Shown here: one piece after another, positions 3,091-34,246 of the stretch
Layout: each line of letters starts with the position of its first letter
Numbering within the stretch: position 1 is the first letter of the stretch
NCBI GenBank assembly: GCA_963665765.1
Contig: OY762464.1
Coordinates: 1,513,741-1,577,740 of the forward strand
Length of the DNA: 64,000 nt
Direction: 5' to 3'
Source: Acidimicrobiia bacterium
GTDB lineage: Bacteria; Actinomycetota; Acidimicrobiia; Spongiisociales; ZC4RG35
The notes under the pieces: model-generated
What the model saw: the letters and a program-made list of their open reading frames with translations, nothing else
Databases searched by the model: none
Told to the model about the DNA's origin: nothing
Translations under genes and position numbers: made by a program

Positions 3091-5064
3091 ATGGAAGAGT
3101 CCACCGAGGATATGTTCGACTACCCGGCGATCACCGTTGCGTTGGTGGAAGAAATCACCTCCGGCGCCATCTCGGAAGGGGAGCGGCTGAGGGCGGCGGT
3201 GCTGGATGCCGGCCCGAAGCGTTCCTATGACGATACCCTAGCCTCCCTCGAGGAGGTGGGGGAAGTGTTCGGTCGGGCCCACGGCCAGGCGGGGTTCATG
3301 GGTTACGTACACCCCGACGAGGAACTCAGAGCGGCCGGCCGCGCCGCGGGCGAACAACTCTCCAAATGGCTAACGGAACTGGCTTTCCACCCCGGGCTCT
3401 ACCAGGCGGTGGAAGAATTCTCCGCCACCGATGAGGCTGCCCGGTTGTCGGGAGAACGCGCCCGGCTGCTGGAGTTTGTCCGTCGGGACCTGCGGCGCGC
3501 CGGTCATCACCTTCCGGCCCGATCCCAAGAGAGGGTGAAGGAACTCACCGGGCGGCTGATAGAACTGGGGGTCGCCTTCGCTCAGAACATCGCGGAGCAC
3601 GAGGATGCCCTGGAGGTGACCAGGGAGGAACTGGAAGGCCTGCCCGAGGCCTATATCGATTCCCTGCCGCTCTCCCCGGACTGCGAGCGCCTGCTGCGGG
3701 TGACCATGGACTACCCTCACGTCACGCCATTCATGGAGAACGCCCGACGCCGTGACCTGCGGCGCCGCCTGATGAGCAAGTTCAACAGCCGGGCCGTTGG
3801 GACCAACCGACCGCTGCTTGAAGAGGCGGTGGCGATTCGCTCCGAGATAGCGGCGCTGTTTGGCGAGCCATCTTGGGCGCACCATCGCCTTTCTGACCGG
3901 ATGGCCAAGACGCCGGAGCGGGTGGAGGAGTTTTACGAACTGCTGCTGGCCCCGCTTCAGGAGGCCGGCCGCCGGGAAATAGAGCGCATCGCCGAAATGC
4001 TGGAGGCCGATGGGGAGGAACGACCCGTGCAGGTTTGGGATTGGCGGTATTACGACAACCGGATCCGCCGGACCGAATACGGGGTGGACCAGATGGAGGT
4101 GGCGGGGTATTTTCCGCTGGAGCAGGTGGTGGAGGGGATGCTGGACCTGACCGGGGAGGTGTTCGGGCTGCGGTACCGTCCGGCGAGCGCGCCGGTCTGG
4201 CATGAGGACGTGGTCACCTATGCCGTCTTCGACCGGGCATCGGGAGAGCGGCTCGCCCATTTCCACATGGATCTGTTTCCCCGGGAGGGAAAGTTCAGCC
4301 ATGCGGCCGCCTTTACGCTTCGGGGAGGCCGTCGCCTCCCCGACGGGTCCTATCAGGCGCCTGTGTCGGCCATCGTTGCCAACTTCACTCCGCCGTCCGG
4401 CGATGCCCCTGCCCTTTTGCAGCATTCGGAGGTGCTTACGCTGTTTCACGAGTTTGGCCACATTCTGCATCAGGTTCTGACCCGCACGGAATTGGGACGG
4501 TTTTCGGGAACCAGCACGGAAGGCGATTTTGTGGAGGCGCCCAGTCAAATCATGGAGAACTGGACCTGGCAGCCCGAGGTGCTGGCGAGGTTTGCTTTCC
4601 ACTACCGGACCGGCGAGCCTCTGCCCACCGAGGTGTTGGAGAAGTTGTCGGGGGCACAACTGCTGAATGTCGCCATCTCCAAACTGCGACAGGCCGGCTT
4701 CGGGTTGCTGGACATGGCCCTGCACGGCCCCGATCCTGACCCGGACCTCGACGAGATTCTGGCCGCCACCACCGAGGTTGCCCTGTTTCCCCAGCAGGAG
4801 GGGACCTTTTTTCCGGCCAGCTTCGGTCATCTCCTGGCCGGATATGACGCCGGTTATTACGGCTATCTGTGGTCGGAGGTCTACGGGGACGACATGTGGA
4901 GGCGGTTTGAGGAGGAAGGGGTCACCAACCCGGGGGTGGGGATGGAATATCGTCGGGAGGTGCTGGAGAAGGGCGGTTCCCGGGATGCGATCGAGACGCT
5001 CCGCGCCTTTCTGGGTCGAGAACCCGACAACCGGGCTTTCCTCCGCAAATTGGGAATCGAGTAG
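3091..5064 (+). CDS. M3 family zinc oligoendopeptidase (Dcp/thimet-like)
   Basis: 657 aa with HEFGH zinc-binding motif and M3 peptidase architecture. Confidence 0.8.
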   Translation: MEESTEDMFDYPAITVALVEEITSGAISEGERLRAAVLDAGPKRSYDDTLASLEEVGEVFGRAHGQAGFMGYVHPDEELRAAGRAAGEQLSKWLTELAFHPGLYQAVEEFSATDEAARLSGERARLLEFVRRDLRRAGHHLPARSQERVKELTGRLIELGVAFAQNIAEHEDALEVTREELEGLPEAYIDSLPLSPDCERLLRVTMDYPHVTPFMENARRRDLRRRLMSKFNSRAVGTNRPLLEEAVAIRSEIAALFGEPSWAHHRLSDRMAKTPERVEEFYELLLAPLQEAGRREIERIAEMLEADGEERPVQVWDWRYYDNRIRRTEYGVDQMEVAGYFPLEQVVEGMLDLTGEVFGLRYRPASAPVWHEDVVTYAVFDRASGERLAHFHMDLFPREGKFSHAAAFTLRGGRRLPDGSYQAPVSAIVANFTPPSGDAPALLQHSEVLTLFHEFGHILHQVLTRTELGRFSGTSTEGDFVEAPSQIMENWTWQPEVLARFAFHYRTGEPLPTEVLEKLSGAQLLNVAISKLRQAGFGLLDMALHGPDPDPDLDEILAATTEVALFPQQEGTFFPASFGHLLAGYDAGYYGYLWSEVYGDDMWRRFEEEGVTNPGVGMEYRREVLEKGGSRDAIETLRAFLGREPDNRAFLRKLGIE

Positions 5065-5071
5065 ACAGAGG

Positions 5072-5101
5072 CCGGGGGCCCCCTCTCTGAAGTGCCCCCG
5101 G
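5072..5101. terminator. GC-rich inverted repeat between convergent genes
   Basis: ccgggggc ...14 nt... gcccccgg, a perfect 8-bp stem between the M3 peptidase stop (5064) and the LiaF-like gene stop (5108). Confidence 0.4.
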
Positions 5102-5107
5102 GCCGGA

Positions 5108-5854
5108 TCAGGACTTCAGTTCGATCCCTCCGAACACCGCCGTTCCGGTAAGAGTGAGCCGACTCTCGGCACCCGGCGAGGGTGAAGGATGGCGTTTGTC
5201 GTCCACGCCCCCGAAGAAATTGGTGATCTGTTGATCGACGGTCCAGTGGTGGGGGATACGAATAGCCGCTCCACCGAACACGGCCGTAACTTCCAAGGTC
5301 GCCTCGCCGTCGGCCAACGCTGCCTCACGCAGGTCTATCTCGGTGGAACCAAACACCGAGACCACCTGGCCCCCGGCCAGAGCCTGGTCGGTGATTCTTC
5401 GATGGTTGCTCCCGAAAACAGAGGTGATGTTCAGTTCCCCGGGAGAGGACTGGTCTTCGAGGTGTGGGAGAGAATTCGATGGCGAGGAGCTTTTTCTCCG
5501 GGCGAAGAGGATCTTGACCCCGATCAGAATCAGGACCACCGGCCAGAGGCGCCAGATGTCACCAATGGTGTAACTCCAAACATCCAGGGTGTCCAGCAGG
5601 AACAAACCTCCCAGCACGATCAGCACCGTCCCCCCGACCCACGAGTCGCCTTTCCGCACCAGGTTGCCGACCCCCATCACGATCAGGATGACGGGCCACC
5701 ATTCACCCCTCGGTGAAGTTTTCCAAAAGGAACAGAACTCCGAGAGCAAGTAATGCCAGGCCGAACGCCCTGCGCCCGCGTGTGGAGGTCGAAGTCGCCA
5801 TGTTGTTCCTTTTCTATCAGAGGATTGCGTGCACCTGAAGGATAGATGGCGCAA
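5108..5854 (-). CDS. LiaF-like cell-wall stress membrane protein (DUF2154 C-terminal domain); start uncertain, possible frameshift
   Basis: Three predicted TM helices followed by a repeated VFGG..I motif typical of LiaF/YvqF-like proteins. A short ORF from ATG 5801 (MATSTSTRGRRAFGLALLALGVLFLLENFTEG*) lies upstream in another frame and may be the real N-terminus. Confidence 0.45.
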   Translation of the reverse strand: MRHLSFRCTQSSDRKGTTWRLRPPHAGAGRSAWHYLLSEFCSFWKTSPRGEWWPVILIVMGVGNLVRKGDSWVGGTVLIVLGGLFLLDTLDVWSYTIGDIWRLWPVVLILIGVKILFARRKSSSPSNSLPHLEDQSSPGELNITSVFGSNHRRITDQALAGGQVVSVFGSTEIDLREAALADGEATLEVTAVFGGAAIRIPHHWTVDQQITNFFGGVDDKRHPSPSPGAESRLTLTGTAVFGGIELKS

Positions 5855-5961
5855 AGTTCTCCGGTCCCGCCGCCGGCCAAGGTGGCCCGGCCGTTAATCC
5901 GGTTGTTCAGCCTCCGGTTGGCAGGGATGGGAGGTTAAGTAAAAGTTCTTTTGTAAATATA

Positions 5962-5990
5962 GTTGACAAATGGCTACGGCGCCCGTACAC
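5962..5990 (+). promoter_or_regulatory. Near-consensus sigma70-type promoter (-35 TTGACA, 17-nt spacer, -10 TACACT)
   Basis: Read directly in an AT-rich patch (about 5925-5995) just upstream of the ROK regulator gene; coordinates are +/-1 nt. Confidence 0.5.
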
Positions 5991-6045
5991 TGCCATTTTG
6001 GGTAAGCGAAAGGTTTGGCCTGTGATCGAAGAGTCGGGAGCCGGC

Positions 6046-7227
6046 ATGCTTCGCCTGAGAAATGGCCAGGCGGTTTTCGACCAGTTCGTTGAGGCCGGCC
6101 GACAGACGATCTCCCGAGCTGAGATTGCCCGAATGACCGGATTGTCCAAGCCCACCGTGAACGCTTTGGTGTCAGACCTGGAAGAAGCGGGGGTGGTGAG
6201 GCAGGTGCCTTTGGTTCAGTCCCAAGGGAGGATCGGTCGGCCGGCGGCGGCTTATCAACTGGTGCCCGACGCGGCGGTGGTGGTGGGCATCGACATGGGC
6301 GCCACCAAGACGCTGGTGGGAGTGGCTGACCTGTTGGGCGAGGTCATAGCCGGCGAGCGGGTTCCAACCCCATCGCACGCGGAAGCGGCCGTGGAGTCCG
6401 TGGTGGCGGCGGTGGGGCGCCTTCTGGAGAGTCTCGGCCACCCCAACCCCCGTTTGGAAAGCGCCTGCCTGGGCGTTCCGGGCGTTTACCGGCCCTCCTT
6501 GGACAGGGTGGAGATGGCGCCCAACCTGCCCGGATTCGGAGATCTGGCCATCCGGGCCGAACTGTCCAACCGACTGGGCGTTTCGGTGACCATCGAGAAC
6601 GACGTCAATTTGGCCGCGGTGGGGGAGGCGAACGCCATGGCCACCGAGGGAGTTGCGGATTTTGCGGCGGTTTCGATCGGAACCGGAATCGGTATGGGGA
6701 TGGTGTTGGATGGAGAGTTGTACCGGGGCGCCCATGGAGCGGCCGGCGAGATCGGATCGGTGAAGCTACCTCGGTTGGGAGGCGAGGTATTCCACGCTCT
6801 CACGCTGGAAGAGGTGGCGTCCGCGCCCGCCATTCGCAAGTTGTTCCATCGGGCGGTGGAGGCCGGGCATCCCACCGGCCTGGAAGGCGACTTCGATGTT
6901 CCCGCCATCTTCGCGGCTTCTGTCCAAGGCGATCAGGCCGCGGTGGCGGCCCTCCGGATCGCGTCCGATGCGGTGGCGTTTGCCGTTTCCTACTTCTGCT
7001 GGGTAAACGACCCCGCTCTGGTGGTGTTCGGAGGAGGGGTGGGCGCCAATCCCATTTTCGTTGATGCGGTGAGGGCGCGAATAGGCCGATACCTGACCGT
7101 GGTTCCGGAAATGGTTCCTTCGACAATCGGTGGACAAGCGGCGTTCTTGGGAGCGGTCTCCACCGCCCTGGCCTCGGTGCGGAGGGGTTTGGTCATCCAA
7201 AGACTGGGACGAAGGAACCAGAGATGA
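6046..7227 (+). CDS. ROK family transcriptional regulator / sugar kinase-like protein
   Basis: N-terminal HTH (ISRAEIARMTGLSKPTV) plus ROK sugar-kinase fold (VGIDMGATKT...GAAGEIG). ATG at 6046 preceded by a GGGAG Shine-Dalgarno motif; the ORF track starts at 5998, which would coincide with the predicted TSS. Confidence 0.75.
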   Translation: MLRLRNGQAVFDQFVEAGRQTISRAEIARMTGLSKPTVNALVSDLEEAGVVRQVPLVQSQGRIGRPAAAYQLVPDAAVVVGIDMGATKTLVGVADLLGEVIAGERVPTPSHAEAAVESVVAAVGRLLESLGHPNPRLESACLGVPGVYRPSLDRVEMAPNLPGFGDLAIRAELSNRLGVSVTIENDVNLAAVGEANAMATEGVADFAAVSIGTGIGMGMVLDGELYRGAHGAAGEIGSVKLPRLGGEVFHALTLEEVASAPAIRKLFHRAVEAGHPTGLEGDFDVPAIFAASVQGDQAAVAALRIASDAVAFAVSYFCWVNDPALVVFGGGVGANPIFVDAVRARIGRYLTVVPEMVPSTIGGQAAFLGAVSTALASVRRGLVIQRLGRRNQR

Positions 7228-8483
7228 CCGAGGCAGCGGCCGTCATTGCCGCCGCGGTCGATGCGGACTCGCTGGTTGATCTGGCCCAGGATGCGGTGCG
7301 GATTCCCAGCATCACTCCCAACGAAGGCGCTTTCGCCGAATGGGTTGCCGGCCGGCTTGCCGAGGGTGGCTGGAACGAGGTCGATCTGGTGGAGGTAGCG
7401 CGCGGCCGCCCGAATGTGTATGCCCGGACCGGCGCCGGAGAGTGTGGCGCCCGATCCTTGGTGCTGGCCGGACATCTGGACACGGTCCATGCCGATGACT
7501 GGACACAGGAGTGGGCGGGGAGCGATCGAGCCGACCCGTTCGCCGGACAGGTTATCGACGGAGAGATCTGGGCCAGGGGGGTGACCGATCAGAAGGGAGG
7601 AATCTGCTCCATCATCGAAGTGGTTCGGGCGATCCGTCGGGCCGGATATCGCCTGCGGGGATCGGCGATCGGATTATTCGTGTGCGATGAGGAGTCCGGT
7701 CAACCGGGAAGCGGGGTTTCTTTGGGAATGCGGGCCGCCGTCAAGCATCTCTGGGAAGGCTCAGGGCGCCCGCCCGATTTTGCGATCTACACAGAGCCGA
7801 GCACCGGCGCCATCTACTCCGCTCAGATGGGGTTCCTGATAGCCGACATCACGTTGTTGGGGAAGTCGGCCTACTTTGGCAGGCCTGAACTGGGAGTGGA
7901 CGCCCTCAAAGCAGGGCATGCCCTGCTGAGCGCTCTGTGGGAGCACAACGGGAAACTGTCCTCGGGAAAGCCCCATCCTCTTCTGGGAGAGCGGTTTCTG
8001 CTGGTGACCACGGTGGGGTCGGGCGGCAACATCGCGGTGCCTGGAAAGTTCGAACTGTCGCTCATCCAAAAGTTTCTGCCGGGGGATGACCTCGATGCGG
8101 CATCGTCGGCCCTGCGGGACATCGCCGCCCAAGTTGCGGAAGAGCACGGGGTTTCTTCCGAGGTGATCTTCTCCGCTCCGAGGGATCACTCGGTGGGGGG
8201 TACCCCCGATGAGATATCGGTCGACCATCCGGGCGTTCGTGAACTGGCCGGCGCCATCGAGGCGACCACCGGCCAACCGGCGAGAATCGAAGGAGCGCCC
8301 TATTGGTCGGAGAAACCGTTGTTGCGGTCGGCGGGTGTGCCCGGCGTCTATTTCGCCGCCGGTGACATCGGCGCCTGCCATACCCCTTTTGAGCGATTGT
8401 CCATTGAAGAGTTCGTTTCTTTGACCCGTACCTTGGCGTACTTTGCGGCGTCGTGGTGCGGAGTCGAAAAGCCCACAACCTAG
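7224..8483 (+). CDS. M20 family metallopeptidase (ArgE/DapE-like)
   Basis: AGHLDTVHADDW ... GVTDQKGG motifs typical of the M20 deacylase/peptidase family; its start overlaps the ROK stop. Confidence 0.7.
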   Translation: MTEAAAVIAAAVDADSLVDLAQDAVRIPSITPNEGAFAEWVAGRLAEGGWNEVDLVEVARGRPNVYARTGAGECGARSLVLAGHLDTVHADDWTQEWAGSDRADPFAGQVIDGEIWARGVTDQKGGICSIIEVVRAIRRAGYRLRGSAIGLFVCDEESGQPGSGVSLGMRAAVKHLWEGSGRPPDFAIYTEPSTGAIYSAQMGFLIADITLLGKSAYFGRPELGVDALKAGHALLSALWEHNGKLSSGKPHPLLGERFLLVTTVGSGGNIAVPGKFELSLIQKFLPGDDLDAASSALRDIAAQVAEEHGVSSEVIFSAPRDHSVGGTPDEISVDHPGVRELAGAIEATTGQPARIEGAPYWSEKPLLRSAGVPGVYFAAGDIGACHTPFERLSIEEFVSLTRTLAYFAASWCGVEKPTT

Positions 8484-8491
8484 GAGGAACC

Positions 8492-10696
8492 ATGAAAGGA
8501 ACCGTGAAAATTCAACGTAACAGATCCGCAAGGTGGCTCATTACCGGTCTGGTGGCAGTGCTCAGCCTGGTCGCGGCGGCTTGCGGCGGCGATGCCGAGG
8601 AGGAAACGACCACTACCCGGGCCACCGCCGAAGCCACCACTACCCAAGCGCCTGCCACGACGGAAGCTCCTCCAGAGCCTGTGGCGCCGGTTACTCAGGG
8701 GCCGGGTGGTGAGGAGGCTACTGCGTCGGGTGAGGTTGTTTTGAGTGGTGATGAGATTGCGCGGGTGCGGTCTGGGGGGTACACGGCGGCTTTGTTGTGG
8801 CATACGGCGGGTGCTTTTACCGATGCGGTGAGTCAGGGTGCTCGGGATGCTTTCGCGGAGTTGGGTGTTGAGGTGATTGCTGAGACGAATGCTCAGTTTG
8901 ATGCTGCTCAGCAGGCCAATGATGTGGAGACTGTGTTGGCGCAGGATCCTGACATCATTGTTAGTTTGGTGATTGATCCGGTGTCGGGTGCGGAGGCGTT
9001 TCGTCCGGCGGTCGAGGCCGGGGTGCAGTTGGTGTTTTTGAGTAATGTGCCCGAGGGCTATGTGCACGGTGTTGACTATGTGGGGGTGGTTACCGATGAT
9101 TTGGCGGCGATGGGGATGGCGGCTGCGGATCTGTTGGCGGATGCTTTGGGTGGTGTGGGGAAGGTGGGTTTCATCTTCCATGATGCTGCCTATTACGTGA
9201 CTAATCAGCGTGATCAGGCGTTCAAGACTTGGATTGAGCAGCGTTATCCGGGGATCGAGATCGTTTCTGAGCAGGGGTTGGCTGATCCGGCTCGGGCTGA
9301 GGAGATCGCGGCGGCGTTGTTGACGCGTAATCCTGATCTGGATGGTATTTATGCGCCGTGGTCGGCTGGTCCGGCTGATGGGGTGTTGGCTGCTTTGCGG
9401 GCGGCGGGTGCTTCGGATGTGGCGGTGGTGACGTTGGATCTGGACACCAATGTGTCGTTGGACTTGGTGGAAGGCGGGAACATTGTTGGTATCGCGGCGG
9501 ACGAGGCCTATGCGTTGGGACGGACCATGGCTTTGGAGGGTGCCTATGGGCTGGTTGGCAAGCAGGCGCCGCCGTTCACGGTGGTGCCGGCTATCGCGGT
9601 GACCGCTGACAATATCGTGGAGGCCTACCGGCAGTCACTAGCCACCGACCCACCCGCAGAAATCATGACAGCACTCGGCGAGTCCGTGCCTGTGGCGCCG
9701 GTTACTCAGGGGCCGGGTGGTGAGGAGGCTACTGCGTCGGGTGAGGTTGTTTTGAGTGGTGATGAGATTGCGCGGGTGCGGTCTGGGGGGTACACGGCGG
9801 CTTTGTTGTGGCATACGGCGGGTGCTTTTACCGATGCGGTGAGTCAGGGTGCTCGGGATGCTTTCGCGGAGTTGGGTGTTGAGGTGATTGCTGAGACGAA
9901 TGCTCAGTTTGATGCTGCTCAGCAGGCCAATGATGTGGAGACTGTGTTGGCGCAGGATCCTGACATCATTGTTAGTTTGGTGATTGATCCGGTGTCGGGT
10001 GCGGAGGCGTTTCGTCCGGCGGTCGAGGCCGGGGTGCAGTTGGTGTTTTTGAGTAATGTGCCCGAGGGCTATGTGCACGGTGTTGACTATGTGGGGGTGG
10101 TTACCGATGATTTGGCGGCGATGGGGATGGCGGCTGCGGATCTGTTGGCGGATGCTTTGGGTGGTGTGGGGAAGGTGGGTTTCATCTTCCATGATGCTGC
10201 CTATTACGTGACTAATCAGCGTGATCAGGCGTTCAAGACTTGGATTGAGCAGCGTTATCCGGGGATCGAGATCGTTTCTGAGCAGGGGTTGGCTGATCCG
10301 GCTCGGGCTGAGGAGATCGCGGCGGCGTTGTTGACGCGTAATCCTGATCTGGATGGTATTTATGCGCCGTGGTCGGCTGGTCCGGCTGATGGGGTGTTGG
10401 CTGCTTTGCGGGCGGCGGGTGCTTCGGATGTGGCGGTGGTGACGTTGGATCTGGACACCAATGTGTCGTTGGACTTGGTGGAAGGCGGGAACATTGTTGG
10501 TATCGCGGCGGACGAGGCCTATGCGTTGGGACGGACCATGGCTTTGGAGGGTGCCTATGGGCTGGTTGGCAAGCAGGCGCCGCCGTTCACGGTGGTGCCG
10601 GCTATCGCGGTGACCGCTGACAATATCGTGGAGGCCTACCGGCAGTCACTAGCCACCGACCCACCCGCAGAAATCATGACAGCACTCGGCGGATAA
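8492..10696 (+). CDS. Lipoprotein made of two tandem type-I periplasmic substrate-binding domains (ribose/sugar-binding-like ABC SBP)
   Basis: GGAGGA Shine-Dalgarno motif then ATG 8492; signal peptide with lipobox (LVAAACGG). Two consecutive 337-aa PBP-type-I domains that are 100% identical at DNA level. Confidence 0.75.
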   Translation: MKGTVKIQRNRSARWLITGLVAVLSLVAAACGGDAEEETTTTRATAEATTTQAPATTEAPPEPVAPVTQGPGGEEATASGEVVLSGDEIARVRSGGYTAALLWHTAGAFTDAVSQGARDAFAELGVEVIAETNAQFDAAQQANDVETVLAQDPDIIVSLVIDPVSGAEAFRPAVEAGVQLVFLSNVPEGYVHGVDYVGVVTDDLAAMGMAAADLLADALGGVGKVGFIFHDAAYYVTNQRDQAFKTWIEQRYPGIEIVSEQGLADPARAEEIAAALLTRNPDLDGIYAPWSAGPADGVLAALRAAGASDVAVVTLDLDTNVSLDLVEGGNIVGIAADEAYALGRTMALEGAYGLVGKQAPPFTVVPAIAVTADNIVEAYRQSLATDPPAEIMTALGESVPVAPVTQGPGGEEATASGEVVLSGDEIARVRSGGYTAALLWHTAGAFTDAVSQGARDAFAELGVEVIAETNAQFDAAQQANDVETVLAQDPDIIVSLVIDPVSGAEAFRPAVEAGVQLVFLSNVPEGYVHGVDYVGVVTDDLAAMGMAAADLLADALGGVGKVGFIFHDAAYYVTNQRDQAFKTWIEQRYPGIEIVSEQGLADPARAEEIAAALLTRNPDLDGIYAPWSAGPADGVLAALRAAGASDVAVVTLDLDTNVSLDLVEGGNIVGIAADEAYALGRTMALEGAYGLVGKQAPPFTVVPAIAVTADNIVEAYRQSLATDPPAEIMTALGG
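8677..10691 (+). repeat. Perfect tandem duplication: 1,004 bp x2, period 1,011 bp (8677-9680 and 9688-10691)
   Basis: Direct comparison of the two copies at their starts, middles and ends shows identical sequence. The junction carries a 7-nt linker, agtccgt. Confidence 0.85.
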
Positions 10697-28425: not shown

Positions 28426-28662
28426 ATGCGTTTCGAGGTGAAGATGCCCAGGCTGGGCGAGACGGTGGACGAAGTTGTGCTTTTGGAATGGATGGTAAAG
28501 GTCGGAGAAGAGGTGGAAAAGGACTCCGAGTTGGCCTTGGTGGAGACCGACAAGGTGGAGACCGAGGTGCCTTCCCCGGTGGCGGGAACGGTGGTCGAGA
28601 TCCTGATAGAAGAAGACGCCGAGGTGATCACCGGCGAGGTGATCTGCGTCATCGAAACATAG
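28426..28662 (+). CDS. Stand-alone lipoyl-domain protein (78 aa)
   Basis: Biotin/lipoyl attachment fold with the E-T-D-K-V lipoyl-lysine motif; no E2 catalytic domain follows. Confidence 0.7.
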   Translation: MRFEVKMPRLGETVDEVVLLEWMVKVGEEVEKDSELALVETDKVETEVPSPVAGTVVEILIEEDAEVITGEVICVIET

Positions 28663-28769: not shown

Positions 28770-29879
28770 TTGAGGGTACTGGCCTTTGCCGATCTCCACT
28801 TGGACGCGCCCTTTGCCGGAAGAGGTCCCAGGTTGGCTCGATTGCGCCGTGACGAGTTAAAGAACACCCTGGGCAGGATTATTCAATTGGCAGGGAGGCT
28901 AGAGGTGGATGCTCTGATGTGCGCAGGGGACTTGTACGAGCATGAGCTATTCACTCCCGACACCGTTCAGATGTTGCGTCGCCTTTTCGATGAGATAGCT
29001 CCCATCCCGGTATTGGTTTCTCCCGGGAACCACGACTGGTTTGGGCCGGGAAGCATCTATGTGACGGCCGACTGGTCACCCAACGTCCACATCTTTGGCT
29101 CAAGCAAAATGACACCATACGATGGCATTGACGGCGTTCGGGTGTGGGGTTTCGCTCATAGGAATCCTTCACAGACCGAGAACCCATTGGGTCGATTTAG
29201 GGTTGAAGGCCAGGGTTTGCACTTGGGGCTGTTACACGGATCGGAGGTTGGGGGCTGGGCCGGCGTAGCGCAATCCCATCCTGAAAAAATACGACACGCG
29301 CCATTTCGCTCCGAGAACCTCACCAGAGCGGGCTTGACTCATGGCATAGTTGGCCACTACCACAGTCCTTTCATGGGAGAGTTCCACACATACCCTGGGG
29401 CGCCCGCCCCGCTTTCATTTAAGGATCAAGGCAGAGGAGGAGCAGTTGAGATGCGGTTTAGTGCTCAGGGTGCCTTGATCGAACGTACTTCACATAGGGT
29501 TACCAGCTTGCCGGTCTACGATTTGCGCGTCGATGTGAGCGGATGCCTTGATTTCGGAGAAATACAGGACCGTATGGAAGCTGCGTTGGAGTCACTGGAA
29601 GGGGTAGCCAGAGTCACGATCTGTGGGGAATTGGGCAGTGCTGTGGAGCTCGACCTGGCCGTGCTCAGTCAGCGGCGAGGACAGTTACAAGATCTCGTGG
29701 TTCGCTCGGGCAGCATCTATCCCGGCTATGACATTGCAGCCATAAGAGATGAGTCCACGGTACGTGGGGCATTTGTTAGGGACCTGATGGCGGCCGATCT
29801 TGATGATGACGAACGACACCGGGTCATCATCACTGGATTGCGCGCTCTTGAGGGTCGTAACGATCTAGCGGTGGGCTGA
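28770..29879 (+). CDS. Calcineurin-like metallophosphoesterase, SbcD/Mre11-like nuclease (YhaO/SbcF-like)
   Basis: DLHLD, GDLYEH and GNHD phosphoesterase motifs. TTG start with GGAGAG 9-15 nt upstream (28755-28760). Confidence 0.7.
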   Translation: MRVLAFADLHLDAPFAGRGPRLARLRRDELKNTLGRIIQLAGRLEVDALMCAGDLYEHELFTPDTVQMLRRLFDEIAPIPVLVSPGNHDWFGPGSIYVTADWSPNVHIFGSSKMTPYDGIDGVRVWGFAHRNPSQTENPLGRFRVEGQGLHLGLLHGSEVGGWAGVAQSHPEKIRHAPFRSENLTRAGLTHGIVGHYHSPFMGEFHTYPGAPAPLSFKDQGRGGAVEMRFSAQGALIERTSHRVTSLPVYDLRVDVSGCLDFGEIQDRMEAALESLEGVARVTICGELGSAVELDLAVLSQRRGQLQDLVVRSGSIYPGYDIAAIRDESTVRGAFVRDLMAADLDDDERHRVIITGLRALEGRNDLAVG

Positions 29880-29882
29880 TCT

Positions 29883-30359
29883 ATGTGGTTCCGCAAGGTT
29901 ACGGCCGGGGCATTTGGTCACTTGCGCGACGAGAGCTTGAAGTTCGGGAAGGCTCTCAATATTGTCTACGGACCCAATGAGTCAGGAAAATCGACGTGGC
30001 ATGCCGCCTTGGTAGCAGCTCTGTGCGGACAGAAACACGGTAGTGGACGCACCAAGGCGGAGCGGAATTTCAAGAGACGCCGTAAGCCTTGGGACGACCC
30101 GGATCGATGGCATATCGCCTTGGAGTTGGTGTTGAATGATGGGCGAATATTTGAGATTGATCGCGACCTGAATGTTCCGAGGACCAGGGTTCTCGATATA
30201 GGTATGGGTGGGAGAGAACCAACCGATGACCTGATGAACCAGGGCAGTCCCGACGGCGCCAGATGGCTCGGGCTTGACCGAAACAACCTTTCCGCTGACA
30301 GCCTCGGTCAGCCAGGCAGACATACTTTCGATACTCAATCTGGGGACGCGACAGCGTAA
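29883..30359 (+). CDS. SbcC/Rad50-like AAA ATPase, N-terminal Walker A fragment (out of frame with the remainder)
   Basis: GPNESGKST P-loop. The ORF terminates at 30359 while the homologous protein continues in the +1 frame. Confidence 0.6.
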   Translation: MWFRKVTAGAFGHLRDESLKFGKALNIVYGPNESGKSTWHAALVAALCGQKHGSGRTKAERNFKRRRKPWDDPDRWHIALELVLNDGRIFEIDRDLNVPRTRVLDIGMGGREPTDDLMNQGSPDGARWLGLDRNNLSADSLGQPGRHTFDTQSGDATA

Positions 30360-33012
30360 AAGCGAGCGTGATGCTTTGCAAGAGCGTCTCGCTCGGGCGG
30401 CGGCGGGTGGAGCGGGTGATACGGCGGCGGGAGCTATTGAGCGCATTAGGAAGTTCTCAACTGAGAACGTAGGACTCGATCGCAGGAATGCGAAAAGACC
30501 CCTCCGACTTGCGATCGAAGGCGTGAAGAGAGCTGAAATCCAACTGTCGAAGACCCGTGACCGCCGTCAAGAATATGTGGATCTAGCAAGAAGAGCGGAT
30601 AGGACTCGGCGAAATGTCCGGTTGCTGGAGGGTCAGCAGGCAGCGCTAAGGGCATTAGGAGCCAGAGACGAAGCCGAAGCACGGGCAAATCAATTGCTGG
30701 AACAAACAACAAGGCTGGAGGAGTGGGAGCGGCGCTTTGTTGATGGGGATCCGCGTGCTCGGAGGGAAGTGAATATGGCGGAGTTGGTGGTTGCTCTGAG
30801 TGGTGCTCGGGGTGCGCCTGGGTCTGTTGGGACGGATCTTGATCCGTTGGAGGTTCTTGAGGGTCGGTTGGAGGAGTTGGATCGGCAGAGGGCGTTGGTT
30901 GAGGCGTTTGAGGGCTTGGAGGAAGCTGAGATGCGGGCGGAGGAGTTGGAGCGGGAGGTCAAGCGTCTTGAGAGGTGGGAACAACGGTTTCCTGATGCGG
31001 ATCCACGCAATCGGGAACTGATGAGTTTTACCGACATTGCTTCCGCGGTTACCCGATGCAACAACCTGCCAAAGCCCGGGTTCACGGACATTGATCCTCT
31101 GAAGATTCTTGAGGAACGCATCTCCATGCTCGATGACTCATCCCCGAAGCCATGCCCTAGCCCCGGTGATGTCCAGCGGTGGATAATCCCCTTGCGAGAA
31201 ACGCCTCCCCCTCCGAGGCAGGAACTGCAGTCACAGATATCGGAAGCCAGGCGCAAGAACGCACCCCCGAAGGCCAATTCGTTGGCCCGGGGGAGACTGA
31301 TCCTGTCCGCCATGGTCGGCGTTGCCGCGGCCGTCGCGGTCTGGATGGCTACAGCAAGAATTCTTTACGGAGTCTTGGCCGGAGTTCCGGTGGCTCTGGG
31401 ATTGATGTTTCTTCGAGTCGGTTCTTCCAGGCATGGACCCGTGGCATCTGTCGATATCAATTTGCTGGAACGGCAACTGCGGGAACGGGACACACTCGAT
31501 GCCAGGGTCGCGCAAGCCCATCGGTTCCTTCGGGAGTGGGAGCTTCCTCTTGACCCGGATGCCGCCATAGCCGAGTTCTATAACAGGGAACGCGCTTGGA
31601 GCGAGCAAACCACTGAACGGCGAAGGCTCGAAGAGATGGTCGCTCGGCGGAGGCGGCTTGATGATGATGAGGCGCAGCGGATTGCTGAACGGGAGAGCGC
31701 TTTTGGCGAGTTGCGGAACGTCGTTGTTCTGTACGGAGGAGATGCATCCGGTGACGAGGGCCAGATTCTCGGTGAGGCTACGTATTTGCTGAATGATCTT
31801 CAGCGGGTGGCGCGAGATCGACAACAGGATGCTGCGGAGTGGGGACGGTTTCAGGAAGCGCTGGCGGGCCGTTCCGTAGAAGAATGGCGAGCTGAAGCTG
31901 GAAGCTGTAGACAACACGCGGAGCTAGCGAGAAGTAGAGCGGAGAATTTGGCTGCCGGGTTTAGTGGTGAGATTTTGGAAATGAAGAGTATCGAAGCCGA
32001 ACGGGAAAAGATTAAGGGAGCGATCTTCCGCCGACGGCGGTTTGATGAGGATGAGGCGAGGCGGTGTGTGGCGAGGGAGGAGGCTTTTGGGGAGTTGCGG
32101 AGGGTGGTGGTCTTGTATGGGGGGGATGGTTCTGGTGGGGAGGGCGAGGTTTTGAGGGTGGCTGATGGTTTGTTGGATCGTTTTGAGCGTTTGGCGCAGC
32201 AGCGGAGTGGGGATGTTGCGGAGTGGGGACGGTTTCAGGAGGCGCTTGGGGGTCGTTCGGTAGAAGAATGGCGGGCTGACGCCGACCTTGCCAGTCGTGA
32301 AGCGAGGAAAGCCGGACAAAAGGCTGATGAGTTGGCGCCCGCTTTAGAGCAGGAATTGCTGCGTTCTGATAGCAGGGAGACGGATCGCTTCCTGCGAGAT
32401 GCGAAGGAGGAAGCGATCAGAACTGCCGGTCAACTGGAGCAGATAGACACAGACTTGGTGGATGTGGCCACGGCACAGTCCGTTCTTGATGAAGCCAAGC
32501 TTGAGTTAGAGCGGGTACAGCGCCTTCAGAGGACCTTAAACATCGCCAGTGAACACCTGCAACGAGCTGCTGAGCACGCCCATCGGCTGCTCGCGCCAAG
32601 GTTGGAAGCTCTCATGAAGGAGTGGATCCCGATCATTACCGGAGATCGTTATGTGGACGTGCTCGTCGATCCAGAGACACTTGAGGTGAAATTGCGTCAT
32701 ATGGATGGCATGATTAGGGAGGCGGCGCTCCTGTCATATGGAACAGCCGAGCAGGTGTACTTACTGTTGCGGATGATTCTCGCTCAGGTATTGACCGACG
32801 GACACGAACCATGTCCGGTGTTGCTCGACGATCCCACCGTGCATGCCGACCTCGATCGCAAGGAGCAGGTGCTGGAGTATCTTCTCCAGGCATCTGACAA
32901 CTTTCAGGTGATCCTATTCACCCAGGACCAACTCGTGGAGCAATGGGCCAGTTCCCGCCGTTCTGATCATAGAATCAAGCTCCTCGAACTCACGGTTCCC
33001 GTGGTTGGCTGA
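30274..33012 (+). CDS. SbcC/YhaN (SbcE)-like ATPase body: coiled-coil arms, central double TM hairpin, C-terminal signature/Walker B/D-loop
   Basis: C-terminus LLSYGTAEQVYLLLR...VLLDDPTVHADLDR is an SMC/SbcC-type signature and Walker B. Central LILSAMVGVAAAVAVWMATARILYGVLAGVPVALGLMFL reads as two TM helices. Two pairs of internal diverged repeats. Confidence 0.6.
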   Translation: MTETTFPLTASVSQADILSILNLGTRQRKSERDALQERLARAAAGGAGDTAAGAIERIRKFSTENVGLDRRNAKRPLRLAIEGVKRAEIQLSKTRDRRQEYVDLARRADRTRRNVRLLEGQQAALRALGARDEAEARANQLLEQTTRLEEWERRFVDGDPRARREVNMAELVVALSGARGAPGSVGTDLDPLEVLEGRLEELDRQRALVEAFEGLEEAEMRAEELEREVKRLERWEQRFPDADPRNRELMSFTDIASAVTRCNNLPKPGFTDIDPLKILEERISMLDDSSPKPCPSPGDVQRWIIPLRETPPPPRQELQSQISEARRKNAPPKANSLARGRLILSAMVGVAAAVAVWMATARILYGVLAGVPVALGLMFLRVGSSRHGPVASVDINLLERQLRERDTLDARVAQAHRFLREWELPLDPDAAIAEFYNRERAWSEQTTERRRLEEMVARRRRLDDDEAQRIAERESAFGELRNVVVLYGGDASGDEGQILGEATYLLNDLQRVARDRQQDAAEWGRFQEALAGRSVEEWRAEAGSCRQHAELARSRAENLAAGFSGEILEMKSIEAEREKIKGAIFRRRRFDEDEARRCVAREEAFGELRRVVVLYGGDGSGGEGEVLRVADGLLDRFERLAQQRSGDVAEWGRFQEALGGRSVEEWRADADLASREARKAGQKADELAPALEQELLRSDSRETDRFLRDAKEEAIRTAGQLEQIDTDLVDVATAQSVLDEAKLELERVQRLQRTLNIASEHLQRAAEHAHRLLAPRLEALMKEWIPIITGDRYVDVLVDPETLEVKLRHMDGMIREAALLSYGTAEQVYLLLRMILAQVLTDGHEPCPVLLDDPTVHADLDRKEQVLEYLLQASDNFQVILFTQDQLVEQWASSRRSDHRIKLLELTVPVVG

Positions 33013-33160
33013 GTCCTGACAGGCTGTGGGCAAGCAGGAGATCACAGAAGCGTCGCCTCCGTTCTCCGGGTTGGGAGACTCGAGACTCGTAGGCCGCTTA
33101 CCTCAGGCAAAGCGGAATTGTGATCGCTAGCATTGGCGAAACGACGGTTGACACAGGGAG

Positions 33161-33403
33161 GTGGCATCAGTGCAGATAACTCGACGGACGGCACTCCGGG
33201 AGTCAGGGTTCACCGAGGCTCAGACCAACGCCTTGGCTATGGCTCTGGAGCCGCTGGCAACCAGGGAAGACCTCCGGGCCATGGTGGAAATGGTTCGTTG
33301 TGATGTGGAAATGGTTCGTAATGATTTGCGGTGGATGAAGTGGGTTGGAGGGGCGATCGGCGTGGCGGTGCTTGCCGAACTGGTTAGGGGCCTCTTTCTT
33401 TGA
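33161..33403 (+). CDS. Small coiled-coil protein with C-terminal TM helix (XhlA/DUF1640-like, hypothetical)
   Basis: 80 aa with an N-terminal helical region, the tandem motif VEMVRCD/VEMVRND, and C-terminal WVGGAIGVAVLAELV TM segment. Confidence 0.35.
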   Translation: MASVQITRRTALRESGFTEAQTNALAMALEPLATREDLRAMVEMVRCDVEMVRNDLRWMKWVGGAIGVAVLAELVRGLFL

Positions 33404-33517
33404 ATCAACTCGGTTTCTGAATCTGCCTGCGATGATTTTGCGGGCGCTGGGCGGCGCAAAGCCCAGACTTGTAATGCACCTCTGTGATGGACCGCAACGT
33501 AAGGGAGCCCGCTGAGC

Positions 33518-34111
33518 ATGGCGATAGAACCGGACGACCATTCCACACTGCGGGAGCATTTCGCGTGGACTTACGGAACACTCGCTATGGTGCACGCGGC
33601 CATCGTTGACGGCGGGATCCGCTACAAGCCTCTCCACTTCATCATCCGAGGTCGATTCCGGAAGGGCTACCTATCCGGGAAAATGAATATGCGACCGCTA
33701 TATGACGACGAAAAAACAAAGATCGCGTATGCCACAACATGCTGCTACTGCGGACGTAAAGCAAAACTGACACTTGATCACCTAATTCCCCGACTGAAAG
33801 GTGGCGCCGACGCTGCCGACAACATCACCTACGCGTGCAAGAGTTGCAACTCGTCCAAGGGAGCAAAGGACATGGTGCTCTGGCTGAAATCCAAAGACCG
33901 CTTCCCGGCCGTACTCGTTTTCCGCCGGTATCTAAAGCTCGCCGCGCGCTGGTGCGAGGACGAAAAACTGATGGACACGCCTTGGGAAGAGATACCCGAT
34001 GCGTCTCTCCCGTTTGACAAGCGGTCTCTCCGAGTCGAGTGGCCAAGGCTGGCCAGCCAGCGGTTGTGGCCAGACCCATGGAACGGGGAGGGGGATGTCC
34101 GCCCCCTGTGA
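33518..34111 (+). CDS. HNH endonuclease
   Basis: CCYCG...LTLDHLIPRLKGG...NITYACKSCNSSKG matches the HNH/His-Me finger motif. Local GC is lower (about 55%). Confidence 0.75.
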   Translation: MAIEPDDHSTLREHFAWTYGTLAMVHAAIVDGGIRYKPLHFIIRGRFRKGYLSGKMNMRPLYDDEKTKIAYATTCCYCGRKAKLTLDHLIPRLKGGADAADNITYACKSCNSSKGAKDMVLWLKSKDRFPAVLVFRRYLKLAARWCEDEKLMDTPWEEIPDASLPFDKRSLRVEWPRLASQRLWPDPWNGEGDVRPL

Positions 34112-34246
34112 TTACAAGTACGGGCATGTGGAAAGAGTCGGCAGCATCTGAAGACACGCTGTGGTACGTCCCGACGCGGAGCGGGGAGGCTGGCTGACAG
34201 TGATGGCACTGAGGCGGTGGAAATGTCCACAGTAGCATCTTTTTGA

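Follow-up and report, generated by a model that had tools for sequence, protein, structure and literature searches.

In a 64,000-nucleotide stretch of DNA from an Acidimicrobiia bacterium (contig OY762464.1, forward-strand positions 1,513,741 to 1,577,740; hereafter the window), two adjacent genes between positions 28,770 and 33,012 encode a Mre11-fold nuclease and a large ATPase related to the structural maintenance of chromosomes (SMC) proteins. We consider the locus likely to be a chromosomal two-gene operon and a paralogue of the Mre11-Rad50/SbcCD machine belonging to the YhaO/YhaN type, a pair also named SbcF/SbcE. At the apex of its two arms the ATPase has a hairpin of two hydrophobic helices, about 41 residues in all, and it has no zinc hook. 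Pairs of the SbcE/SbcF kind are already known and poorly characterised, and the pair in the window is a further, distant relative. The coordinates of all features are collected in Table 1.

The product of the upstream gene is shown by its motifs and by structural modelling to be a Mre11-fold manganese phosphoesterase with nuclease, capping and C-terminal helical domains. Its open reading frame (ORF) matches the Pfam Metallophos family (E 1.9e-10) and contains each of the metallophosphoesterase motifs (DLHLD, GDLYEH and GNHD) that had been picked out in the original prediction, which was made from the nucleotide sequence without database searches. In an alignment of 35 homologues of 46–77% identity, D8, H10, D54, N87, H88, H156, H196 and H198, which bind metal or take part in catalysis in Mre11/SbcD, are invariant, and a segment of the C-terminal helical region (TVRGxFVRD...TGLRAL.GR) is also conserved. 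The AlphaFold 2 (AF2) model of the nuclease has a predicted local distance difference test score (pLDDT) of 90.2; the best 50 matches to it in the PDB are Mre11 or SbcD in all 50 cases, with template modelling (TM) scores of 0.6–0.73, and these matches span nearly the whole length of their targets. By sequence, the nearest solved structure is remote, being the Mre11 of T. maritima with 33 bits over 92 residues. Curated models of SbcD score the protein well below their cut-offs, TIGR00619 sbcd of NCBIfam giving 35.8 against 77.65 and PRK10966 giving 15.2 against 450. The Mre11 fold and the intact metal motifs denote a superfamily and a mechanism held in common with SbcCD, and do not place the nuclease within the orthologous group of SbcCD.

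The downstream gene encodes an ATPase of the ATP-binding cassette (ABC)/SMC type, in which two long helical arms connect the N- and C-terminal halves of the head. The residues of the Walker A, signature and Walker B motifs are invariant; in the C-terminal head, S951, G953, T954, Q957, P978 and D982 do not vary among 84 ATPase homologues. The structure was modelled with AF2 on an intact orthologue, P0004, in which the heads (residues 1–260 and 830–1030) reach a pLDDT above 90 and long helices lead out of them at residues 202–280 and 861–912, the middle of the protein being a less confident, segmented helical region. Foldseek matches to this model comprise condensin, Rad50, Smc5/6, MukB, JetC and LmuB, and the best local superpositions are on the heads of Rad50, at 2.8–4.5 Å over approximately 135–150 columns. 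The C-terminal head is the stretch that scores best against Bacillus YhaN, and it has remote sequence matches to Rad50 entries in the PDB. Models for Rad50 and SbcC score far under their cut-offs, as with the Rad50 model PRK03918 (20.9 against 700).

The hydrophobic peptide quoted in the original prediction was found at residues 472–510 of the repaired ATPase (nucleotides ~31297–31413). The two Arg-bracketed segments have Kyte-Doolittle means over 19 residues of 2.14 and 1.88, against a mean of -0.58 for the whole protein, and no CxxC motif occurs anywhere in the window ATPase or in the homologues checked. Two helices, at residues 466–481 and 489–504, occupy the same position in the P0004 model. 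A hydrophobic block at mid-length is present in 62 of 69 full-length ATPases, nearly always between 0.42 and 0.55 of the protein, and a further one falls just under the threshold; the phyla with this block are Actinomycetota, Chloroflexota, Gammaproteobacteria, Eremiobacterota, Gemmatimonadota and Acidobacteriota. At a looser cut-off the median length of the block is 48 residues, Arg and Lys are slightly enriched on both of its flanks, and its sequence is not itself conserved. Lipid-facing helices are favoured because length, position and hydrophobicity have been kept while sequence has not, and the enrichment of Arg and Lys agrees with a hairpin whose ends both lie on the cytoplasmic side, where the halves of the head require them to be. 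An equivalent hairpin, VCLLLLLINTVVLFTSLFI-DNR-LLLFISVIIFVGIVLALVLY, lies in the centre of Bacillus YhaN, and others are found in more distant AAA_27 proteins labelled 'YhaN' by the Joint Genome Institute (JGI). The hydropathy block, the lack of CxxC and the Bacillus equivalent thus uphold the earlier suggestion of a YhaN-like architecture, with two helices of transmembrane type in place of the zinc hook.

Our comparator for the Bacillus pair was L084, the yhaO-yhaN-yhaM locus of Bacillus sp. N5-665, which was found by a tblastn search of a plasmid collection and encodes a Metallophos protein of 413 amino acids (aa), an AAA_27 protein of 974 aa and a protein of 314 aa with HD and OB-fold domains. 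The replicon on which it lies (NZ_CP093325.1, 'plasmid p1') is 5.5 Mb long, is listed as a plasmid in PLSDB and has only 25 annotated features; given chromosomal genes such as yhaO-yhaN-yhaM, it is almost certainly a mislabelled chromosome. The two loci have the same order of nuclease gene followed by ATPase gene, with stop and start codons that abut or overlap, a Mre11-like metallophosphoesterase, and an SMC-like ATPase of approximately 1,000 aa that lacks CxxC and contains a two-helix hydrophobic hairpin at mid-length. Of the comparators tried, Bacillus YhaO and YhaN also scored highest in pairwise comparison, in agreement with the original assignment to this type rather than to canonical SbcCD. 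In BLASTP comparisons the nuclease aligns with YhaO at 83 bits (E 6e-22, 288 aa) and with E. coli SbcD at 30 bits (E 1e-4, 57 aa), and the ATPase orthologue P0004 aligns with YhaN at 66 bits (E 7e-15) plus a further 34 bits, as opposed to 21 bits (E 0.47, not significant) with E. coli SbcC. Aligned by hhalign, the family profile and Bacillus YhaN match with a probability of 98.3, in the C-terminal head only.

Differences from the Bacillus pair are also considerable. Identity is 26–29% and found in the catalytic domains only, the nuclease has 369 aa against 413 aa, the arms are built here of lineage-specific repeats of 84 and 128 aa, and the host is a high-GC, Acidimicrobiia-like organism and not a Firmicute. 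In Bacillus a yhaM-like gene for an HD/OB 3'-5' exoribonuclease lies downstream, where there is none in the window; this we regard as a neighbourhood trait of Bacilli, not as a defining feature of the pair. The AAA_27 family (PF13514) is matched by members of the window clade at 32.6–38.6 bits, above the gathering cut-off of 22, over positions 1–57 of the 206 in the profile only, whereas Bacillus YhaN matches positions 1–200 at 94.7 bits. Because the match covers only the P-loop part and AAA_23 scores higher, the sequence comparisons would place the window clade as a divergent branch of the YhaN-type group and not as a close orthologue.

The literature that we searched contains one functional paper on SbcE/SbcF, from 2010, and no solved structure. 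In that work (Krishnamurthy et al. 2010, PMC2811018), SbcE was found to lack CxxC and to possess a unique central domain that is hydrophobic and insoluble, SbcE and YhaO interacted in a yeast two-hybrid assay, and SbcE had roles in double-strand break (DSB) repair and transformation and formed polar foci. The central domain is not termed transmembrane in PMC2811018, nor did we find, in the literature searched, a later paper that so describes the central domain of SbcE/YhaN.

The wider family was sampled as 80 loci, from a scan of species-representative genomes, which belong to Acidimicrobiales, other Actinomycetota (including Mycobacterium and Micromonosporaceae), Chloroflexota, Gammaproteobacteria, Eremiobacterota, Gemmatimonadota, Acidobacteriota and others. 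The closest of them, with 66% identity, is from 'bacterium OM1 bin76', which points to an Acidimicrobiia-like source of the window. Both genes could be located at 74 loci, and in nearly all of these the nuclease gene is immediately 5' of the ATPase gene, the two most often abutting or overlapping, with a few loci fragmented by assembly breaks. A nuclease profile retrieved 1,126 representatives of 50%-identity clusters, from among 1.84 billion, at E <= 1e-30. The mycobacterial members (L020, L024 and L051) may be counterparts of M. tuberculosis Rv1277/Rv1278. Two unusual arrangements were also seen: a Chloroflexota locus (L027, 6680–11340) has two nuclease-ATPase pairs in tandem, and another locus (L007, 1154–2599) has a second, apparently truncated copy approximately 4 kb upstream of the main pair.

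Both arms of the ATPase contain internal repeats, which we measured by pairwise protein comparison. The two units of the N-terminal arm (N-arm) are 42% identical over 57 aa (E 1e-15) and those of the C-terminal arm (C-arm) 53% identical over 127 aa (E 4e-33); Tandem Repeats Finder detected no tandem repeats in the DNA of the ATPase gene, and the repetition can be seen at the protein level only. Relatives have two to three copies of each unit, and the counts in the two arms vary independently: two N-arm and two C-arm units (2N+2C) in the window, P0004, P0006 and P0007, 3N+2C in P0003, 2N+3C in P0001/L083 and 3N+3C in P0002. P0001/L083 has 2N+3C, against the 2N+2C of the window, while being 98% identical to it in nucleotide sequence. 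Such independent change in arm length does not sit easily with a simple antiparallel coiled coil of two strands, and the units may instead be self-contained helical bundles.

Table 1. Coordinates of the nuclease-ATPase pair, its internal features and the adjoining insertion (positions in the window).
Feature	Position	Strand	Details
Mre11/SbcD-fold nuclease, YhaO/SbcF-type	28770..29879	+	369 aa, intact, TTG start
ATPase N-terminal part, residues 1-133, frame 0	29883..30281	+	Walker A GPNESGKST at nucleotides 29970-29996
AAA homopolymer with one extra A; ATPase frame +1	30280..30282	+	L083 has AA; orthologues read RTT
ATPase residues 134-1042, frame +1: helical arms, membrane hairpin (predicted), C-terminal head	30283..33012	+	
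Two N-arm repeats, 84-aa period	30712..31134	+	residues ~277-333, 361-417; motif WExRFxDxDP
Predicted membrane helical hairpin	31294..31416	+	residues 471-511, R-LILSAMVGVAAAVAVWMATA-R-ILYGVLAGVPVALGLMFL-R, apex of arms
Two C-arm repeats, 128-aa period	31618..32382	+	residues 579-705, 707-833; motif EWGRFQEA
C-terminal head motifs	signature-like LSYGTAEQ 32731-32754; Walker B/D-loop PVLLDDP 32815-32835	+	
Lineage-specific insertion, not part of the system	33013..34246	+	80-aa ORF 33161-33403; HNH endonuclease 33518-34111

Several observations weigh against the assignment of this locus to a functional YhaO/YhaN-type pair with a membrane anchor. The ATPase gene is broken as assembled. Its match to AAA_27 is partial (1–57 of 206) and is outscored by that to AAA_23, at 51 bits; it resembles YhaN in the heads only, with 29% identity over 136 aa and 20% over 366 aa; and the window locus has no yhaM, which is the third gene in the Bacillus cluster. 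Membrane insertion is predicted from hydropathy and conservation, and the AF2 model has low confidence in the hairpin itself (pLDDT ~45–50). Six of the 69 homologues, all in a subclade of Chloroflexota, depart from the two-helix pattern at the apex: four of these, from Chloroflexota/Caldilineaceae (L014, L016, L018 and L019; apex at about residues 345–450), have only one amphipathic helix there, GGLFATLFRAIRAVFAALFRLFGGG, which could serve as an anchor in the plane of the membrane, and two from Chloroflexota/Dehalococcoidia (L013 and L015) have no hydrophobic apex. A few of the 108 immediate neighbours of the pair, from about 65 loci, match defence models, namely AbiEi in three cases and ATPases like OLD/GajA in two; a further two match reverse transcriptase (RT)-protease models. 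Finally, experimental work on the family comes from B. subtilis only.

The break in the ATPase gene raises the possibility that the frameshift at 30280–30282 is real and that the pair is decaying and functionless in the present genome. What had originally been described as a single ATPase of roughly 1,050 aa is indeed SMC-like, but in the window it does not form one ORF, being split between 29883–30359 (158 aa) and 30274–33012 (912 aa, in the +1 frame). The first ORF, whose ATG at 29883 follows the nuclease stop codon after a gap of 3 nucleotides, carries GPNESGKST and matches AAA_27 at 38.6 bits and AAA_23 at 36.7 bits in Pfam; the second has no Pfam match when taken alone. If one A is dropped from the AAA at 30280–30282, an ATPase of 1,042 aa results with the junction WLGLDRTTFPLTASV, at which the intact 1,042-aa orthologues P0004 and P0006 read WLGLDRTTFPMTASV. 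It is 73–74% identical to both orthologues over 100% of its length, and apart from that single base the frame is open across all 1,042 codons, with no stops and no other indels relative to them. The gene call of the source genome (P0005) is likewise truncated, at 745 aa.

Decay would also accord with the state of the closest relative, L083, a 98.2%-identical locus from a separate assembly, in which both genes are broken as well; its nuclease gene lacks one C of a CCC run, and its ATPase gene one G of a GGGG run. Each assembly is, however, broken at different sites. Where the window has AAA, L083 has AA, and the three internal indels that separate the two loci across both genes are, without exception, single-base homopolymer differences (CCC/CC, AAA/AA and GGGG/GGG), the other two lying at 29006 and 30342 in the window, corresponding to 6487 and 7821 in L083; this is the signature of long-read error. 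Since L083 is without the extra A and has homopolymer indels of its own, the frame break is most probably a homopolymer error of long-read assembly rather than biology. The ratio of nonsynonymous to synonymous substitution rates (dN/dS), calculated against the orthologous locus L001 with its 74%-identical ATPase, comes to 0.087 in the nuclease gene and 0.24 in the ATPase gene. By region of the ATPase it rises from 0.11–0.19 in the heads to 0.29–0.33 in the arms and 0.42 in the hairpin. Arms and hairpin (0.29–0.42) evolve faster than the neighbouring genes, as a decaying gene might; it is nonetheless well under 1 throughout, and both genes are under purifying selection. On balance, we think it unlikely that the locus is a pseudogene. 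Other apparent frameshifts in the window may be artefacts too, as these indels look like long-read error.

A role as an anti-phage or anti-plasmid system, or as part of a mobile element, would give the anchor a different purpose, for it would place an SMC-like sensor and a nuclease at the point where foreign DNA enters, with the HNH endonuclease as a partner. The original prediction had thought a role in defence or mobile-DNA handling plausible on account of low GC and the adjacent HNH gene. Both observations are correct: the G+C content is 0.56–0.57 in the pair and 0.63–0.65 in its neighbours, the value at third codon positions (GC3) is 0.59 compared with 0.69–0.79 in flanking genes, and the HNH gene does lie downstream, as it does in L083, encoding a stand-alone endonuclease of 197 aa (Pfam HNH, E 1.3e-11). 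The role itself is not supported, because the HNH gene is lineage-specific, the dip in GC3 is shared with an orthologue and no copies were found on plasmids or phages. The HNH gene and an 80-aa ORF with a hydrophobic C-terminus make up an insertion of ~1.2 kb between the ATPase gene and a GFO_IDH_MocA gene, which is shared only with the near-identical L083; in the syntenic loci L001 and L002 (ATPase 74% identical) the GFO_IDH_MocA gene lies 218–222 base pairs past the ATPase gene and there is no HNH gene. A homologue of the HNH gene occurs near the pair, and then weakly, at one of 82 related loci compared, and we rejected it as a partner on these grounds. Intergenic DNA of the window and L001 is too diverged in alignment to place the borders of the insertion. 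As for composition, the orthologous pair of L001 (8888–13129), in the same chromosomal position, has a GC3 of 0.58–0.59; the dip is hence a stable trait of these genes and not a mark of recent transfer, so that recent horizontal acquisition was rejected. It possibly reflects low expression.

Combinations of an SMC-like ATPase with a nuclease are common in defence systems, and Lamassu LmuB, Wadjet JetC, Gabija GajA and PARIS AriA resemble the present ATPase in having SMC/ABC heads and coiled-coil arms, the SMC subunits of Lamassu and Wadjet being among the Foldseek matches. A search of PADLOC profiles returned partial matches to the ATPase, to LmuB (the best, at 49 bits and E 1e-13), mad3 and GajA, all to the generic SMC head, with no match at the level of a system, and no match to the nuclease better than E 7e-4. 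The Foldseek and PADLOC matches to these four systems are weak and partial, their partner genes are missing (no equivalents of LmuA, JetABD, GajB or AriB are present), the neighbouring genes are metabolic and do not constitute a defence island, the effector here is a nuclease of another type, with the Mre11 fold, and none of the matched PADLOC or PDB entries has a membrane hairpin. Membership of Lamassu, Wadjet or Gabija was rejected on the partial head matches and the want of partner genes.

The spread of the pair across phyla is patchy and a few loci do adjoin AbiEi-like or OLD/GajA-like genes, as a defence function would lead one to expect, but no third gene is conserved by the pair, the best flank cluster being found at 8 of 74 loci. 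The pair was absent from 72,556 plasmids and 50,697 phage records, collections biased to other phyla, in which there were weak head-domain matches at most. Its chromosomal position is conserved among close relatives, an outcome that the original prediction had itself listed among those that would refute it, and the relative with a 74%-identical ATPase has equal GC3. Furthermore, the only homologue to have been studied acts in DSB repair and transformation (PMC2811018). A defence or mobile-element function is accordingly quite unlikely, and a chromosomal YhaO/YhaN-type operon is preferred.

The flanks that L001, L002 and L083 have in common consist of E1 dehydrogenase and lipoyl-protein genes upstream, and GFO_IDH_MocA and sugar ABC transporter genes downstream. 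Upstream of the pair, L001 and L002 have genes for a ceramidase-like protein, E1 beta, E1 alpha and the lipoyl protein. Between their lipoyl-protein and nuclease genes (4612–8841) are an insertion sequence (IS) element, with DDE_Tnp_1 and DUF772 domains, and genes for a xanthine/uracil permease and an adenosine deaminase; in the window the lipoyl-protein ORF (28426–28662) is followed by the nuclease gene after 107 nucleotides. No RNA genes came up when the whole window was scanned with Rfam models and for tRNAs, and a scan for promoters and terminators gave no more matches than shuffled sequence, leaving the ends of the operon undefined.

The central block of the ATPase might, alternatively, be a buried hydrophobic dimerisation core that remains in the cytosol as an analogue of a hinge or hook and does not span the membrane. 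Ala, Gly and Val abound in its helices and there is an Arg at the turn, the AF2 model is of low confidence at this point, and insertion is a prediction from hydropathy and conservation; a lone amphipathic helix occupies the same position in the Chloroflexota subclade, and the central domain of the Bacillus protein has been described only as hydrophobic and insoluble (PMC2811018). However, the two segments of ~19–20 residues exceed the classical hydropathy threshold of 1.6 and have basic residues on both sides. Moreover, 62 of 69 homologues and Bacillus YhaN have retained length and hydrophobicity without retaining sequence, which is typical of lipid-facing helices and not of a specific interface, and the Bacillus segments LLLLLINTVVLFTSLFI and LLLFISVIIFVGIVLALVLY are unmistakably transmembrane-like. 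We therefore give a cytosolic core a slim chance, and favour a membrane hairpin.

That the pair is simply the housekeeping SbcCD of the organism is extremely improbable: many homologues are named 'exonuclease SbcC/SbcD' by JGI and NCBI, the best Pfam match is AAA_23 and the nuclease has the Mre11/SbcD fold, but the ATPase has a membrane hairpin and lacks a CxxC hook, the NCBIfam sbcd model falls short of its cut-off (35.8 against 77.65) with the Rad50/SbcC models far shorter, and BLASTP gives 30 bits only with E. coli SbcD and nothing significant with SbcC. In common with SbcCD and Mre11-Rad50, the pair has the nuclease fold (TM 0.6–0.73), an ABC head with Walker A, signature and Walker B motifs, long helical arms, the operon order and, presumably, the mechanism of an ATP-gated DNA-end clamp and nuclease. 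It differs in having a membrane hairpin where they have a zinc hook, and in sequence similarity to them that is marginal or not significant and under the NCBIfam cut-offs.

If the locus is a YhaO/YhaN-type machine, a working mechanism may be proposed. Because both halves of the head must be cytoplasmic, the hairpin would insert in the cytoplasmic membrane with both ends on the cytoplasmic side and an outer turn of 1–5 residues. Hairpins so inserted would hold the tips of the arms in the bilayer and would probably dimerise them there, which is the job of the zinc hook in canonical complexes. From homology with Mre11-Rad50 and SbcCD, the heads would be expected to engage on ATP and to clamp DNA ends or hairpins, with the nuclease cutting on ATP hydrolysis. 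By analogy with SbcE/SbcF of B. subtilis, the machine may serve in the constitutive processing of double-strand breaks, or of DNA ends, near the membrane.

Among bacterial SMC-like repair systems none is less well understood than SbcE/SbcF, and the substitution of a hairpin for the zinc hook is not restricted to Firmicutes, its position having been kept in Actinomycetota, Chloroflexota, Gammaproteobacteria and other phyla. For annotation, the pair should be called neither SbcCD nor a defence system, and the broken ATPase call is probably an artefact of assembly. One conjecture, to which we attach little probability, is that the family constitutes a multi-phylum class of Mre11-Rad50-like machines with arm tips permanently tethered to the membrane, which could survey DNA that passes through or contacts it, such as DNA entering by transformation, conjugation or phage infection, or chromosome ends attached to it, with a reach into the cytoplasm tuned by the 84-aa and 128-aa repeats, which differ in copy number even between near-identical strains. 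The family could be used to test why a machine of the Mre11-Rad50 type would be tethered to a membrane.

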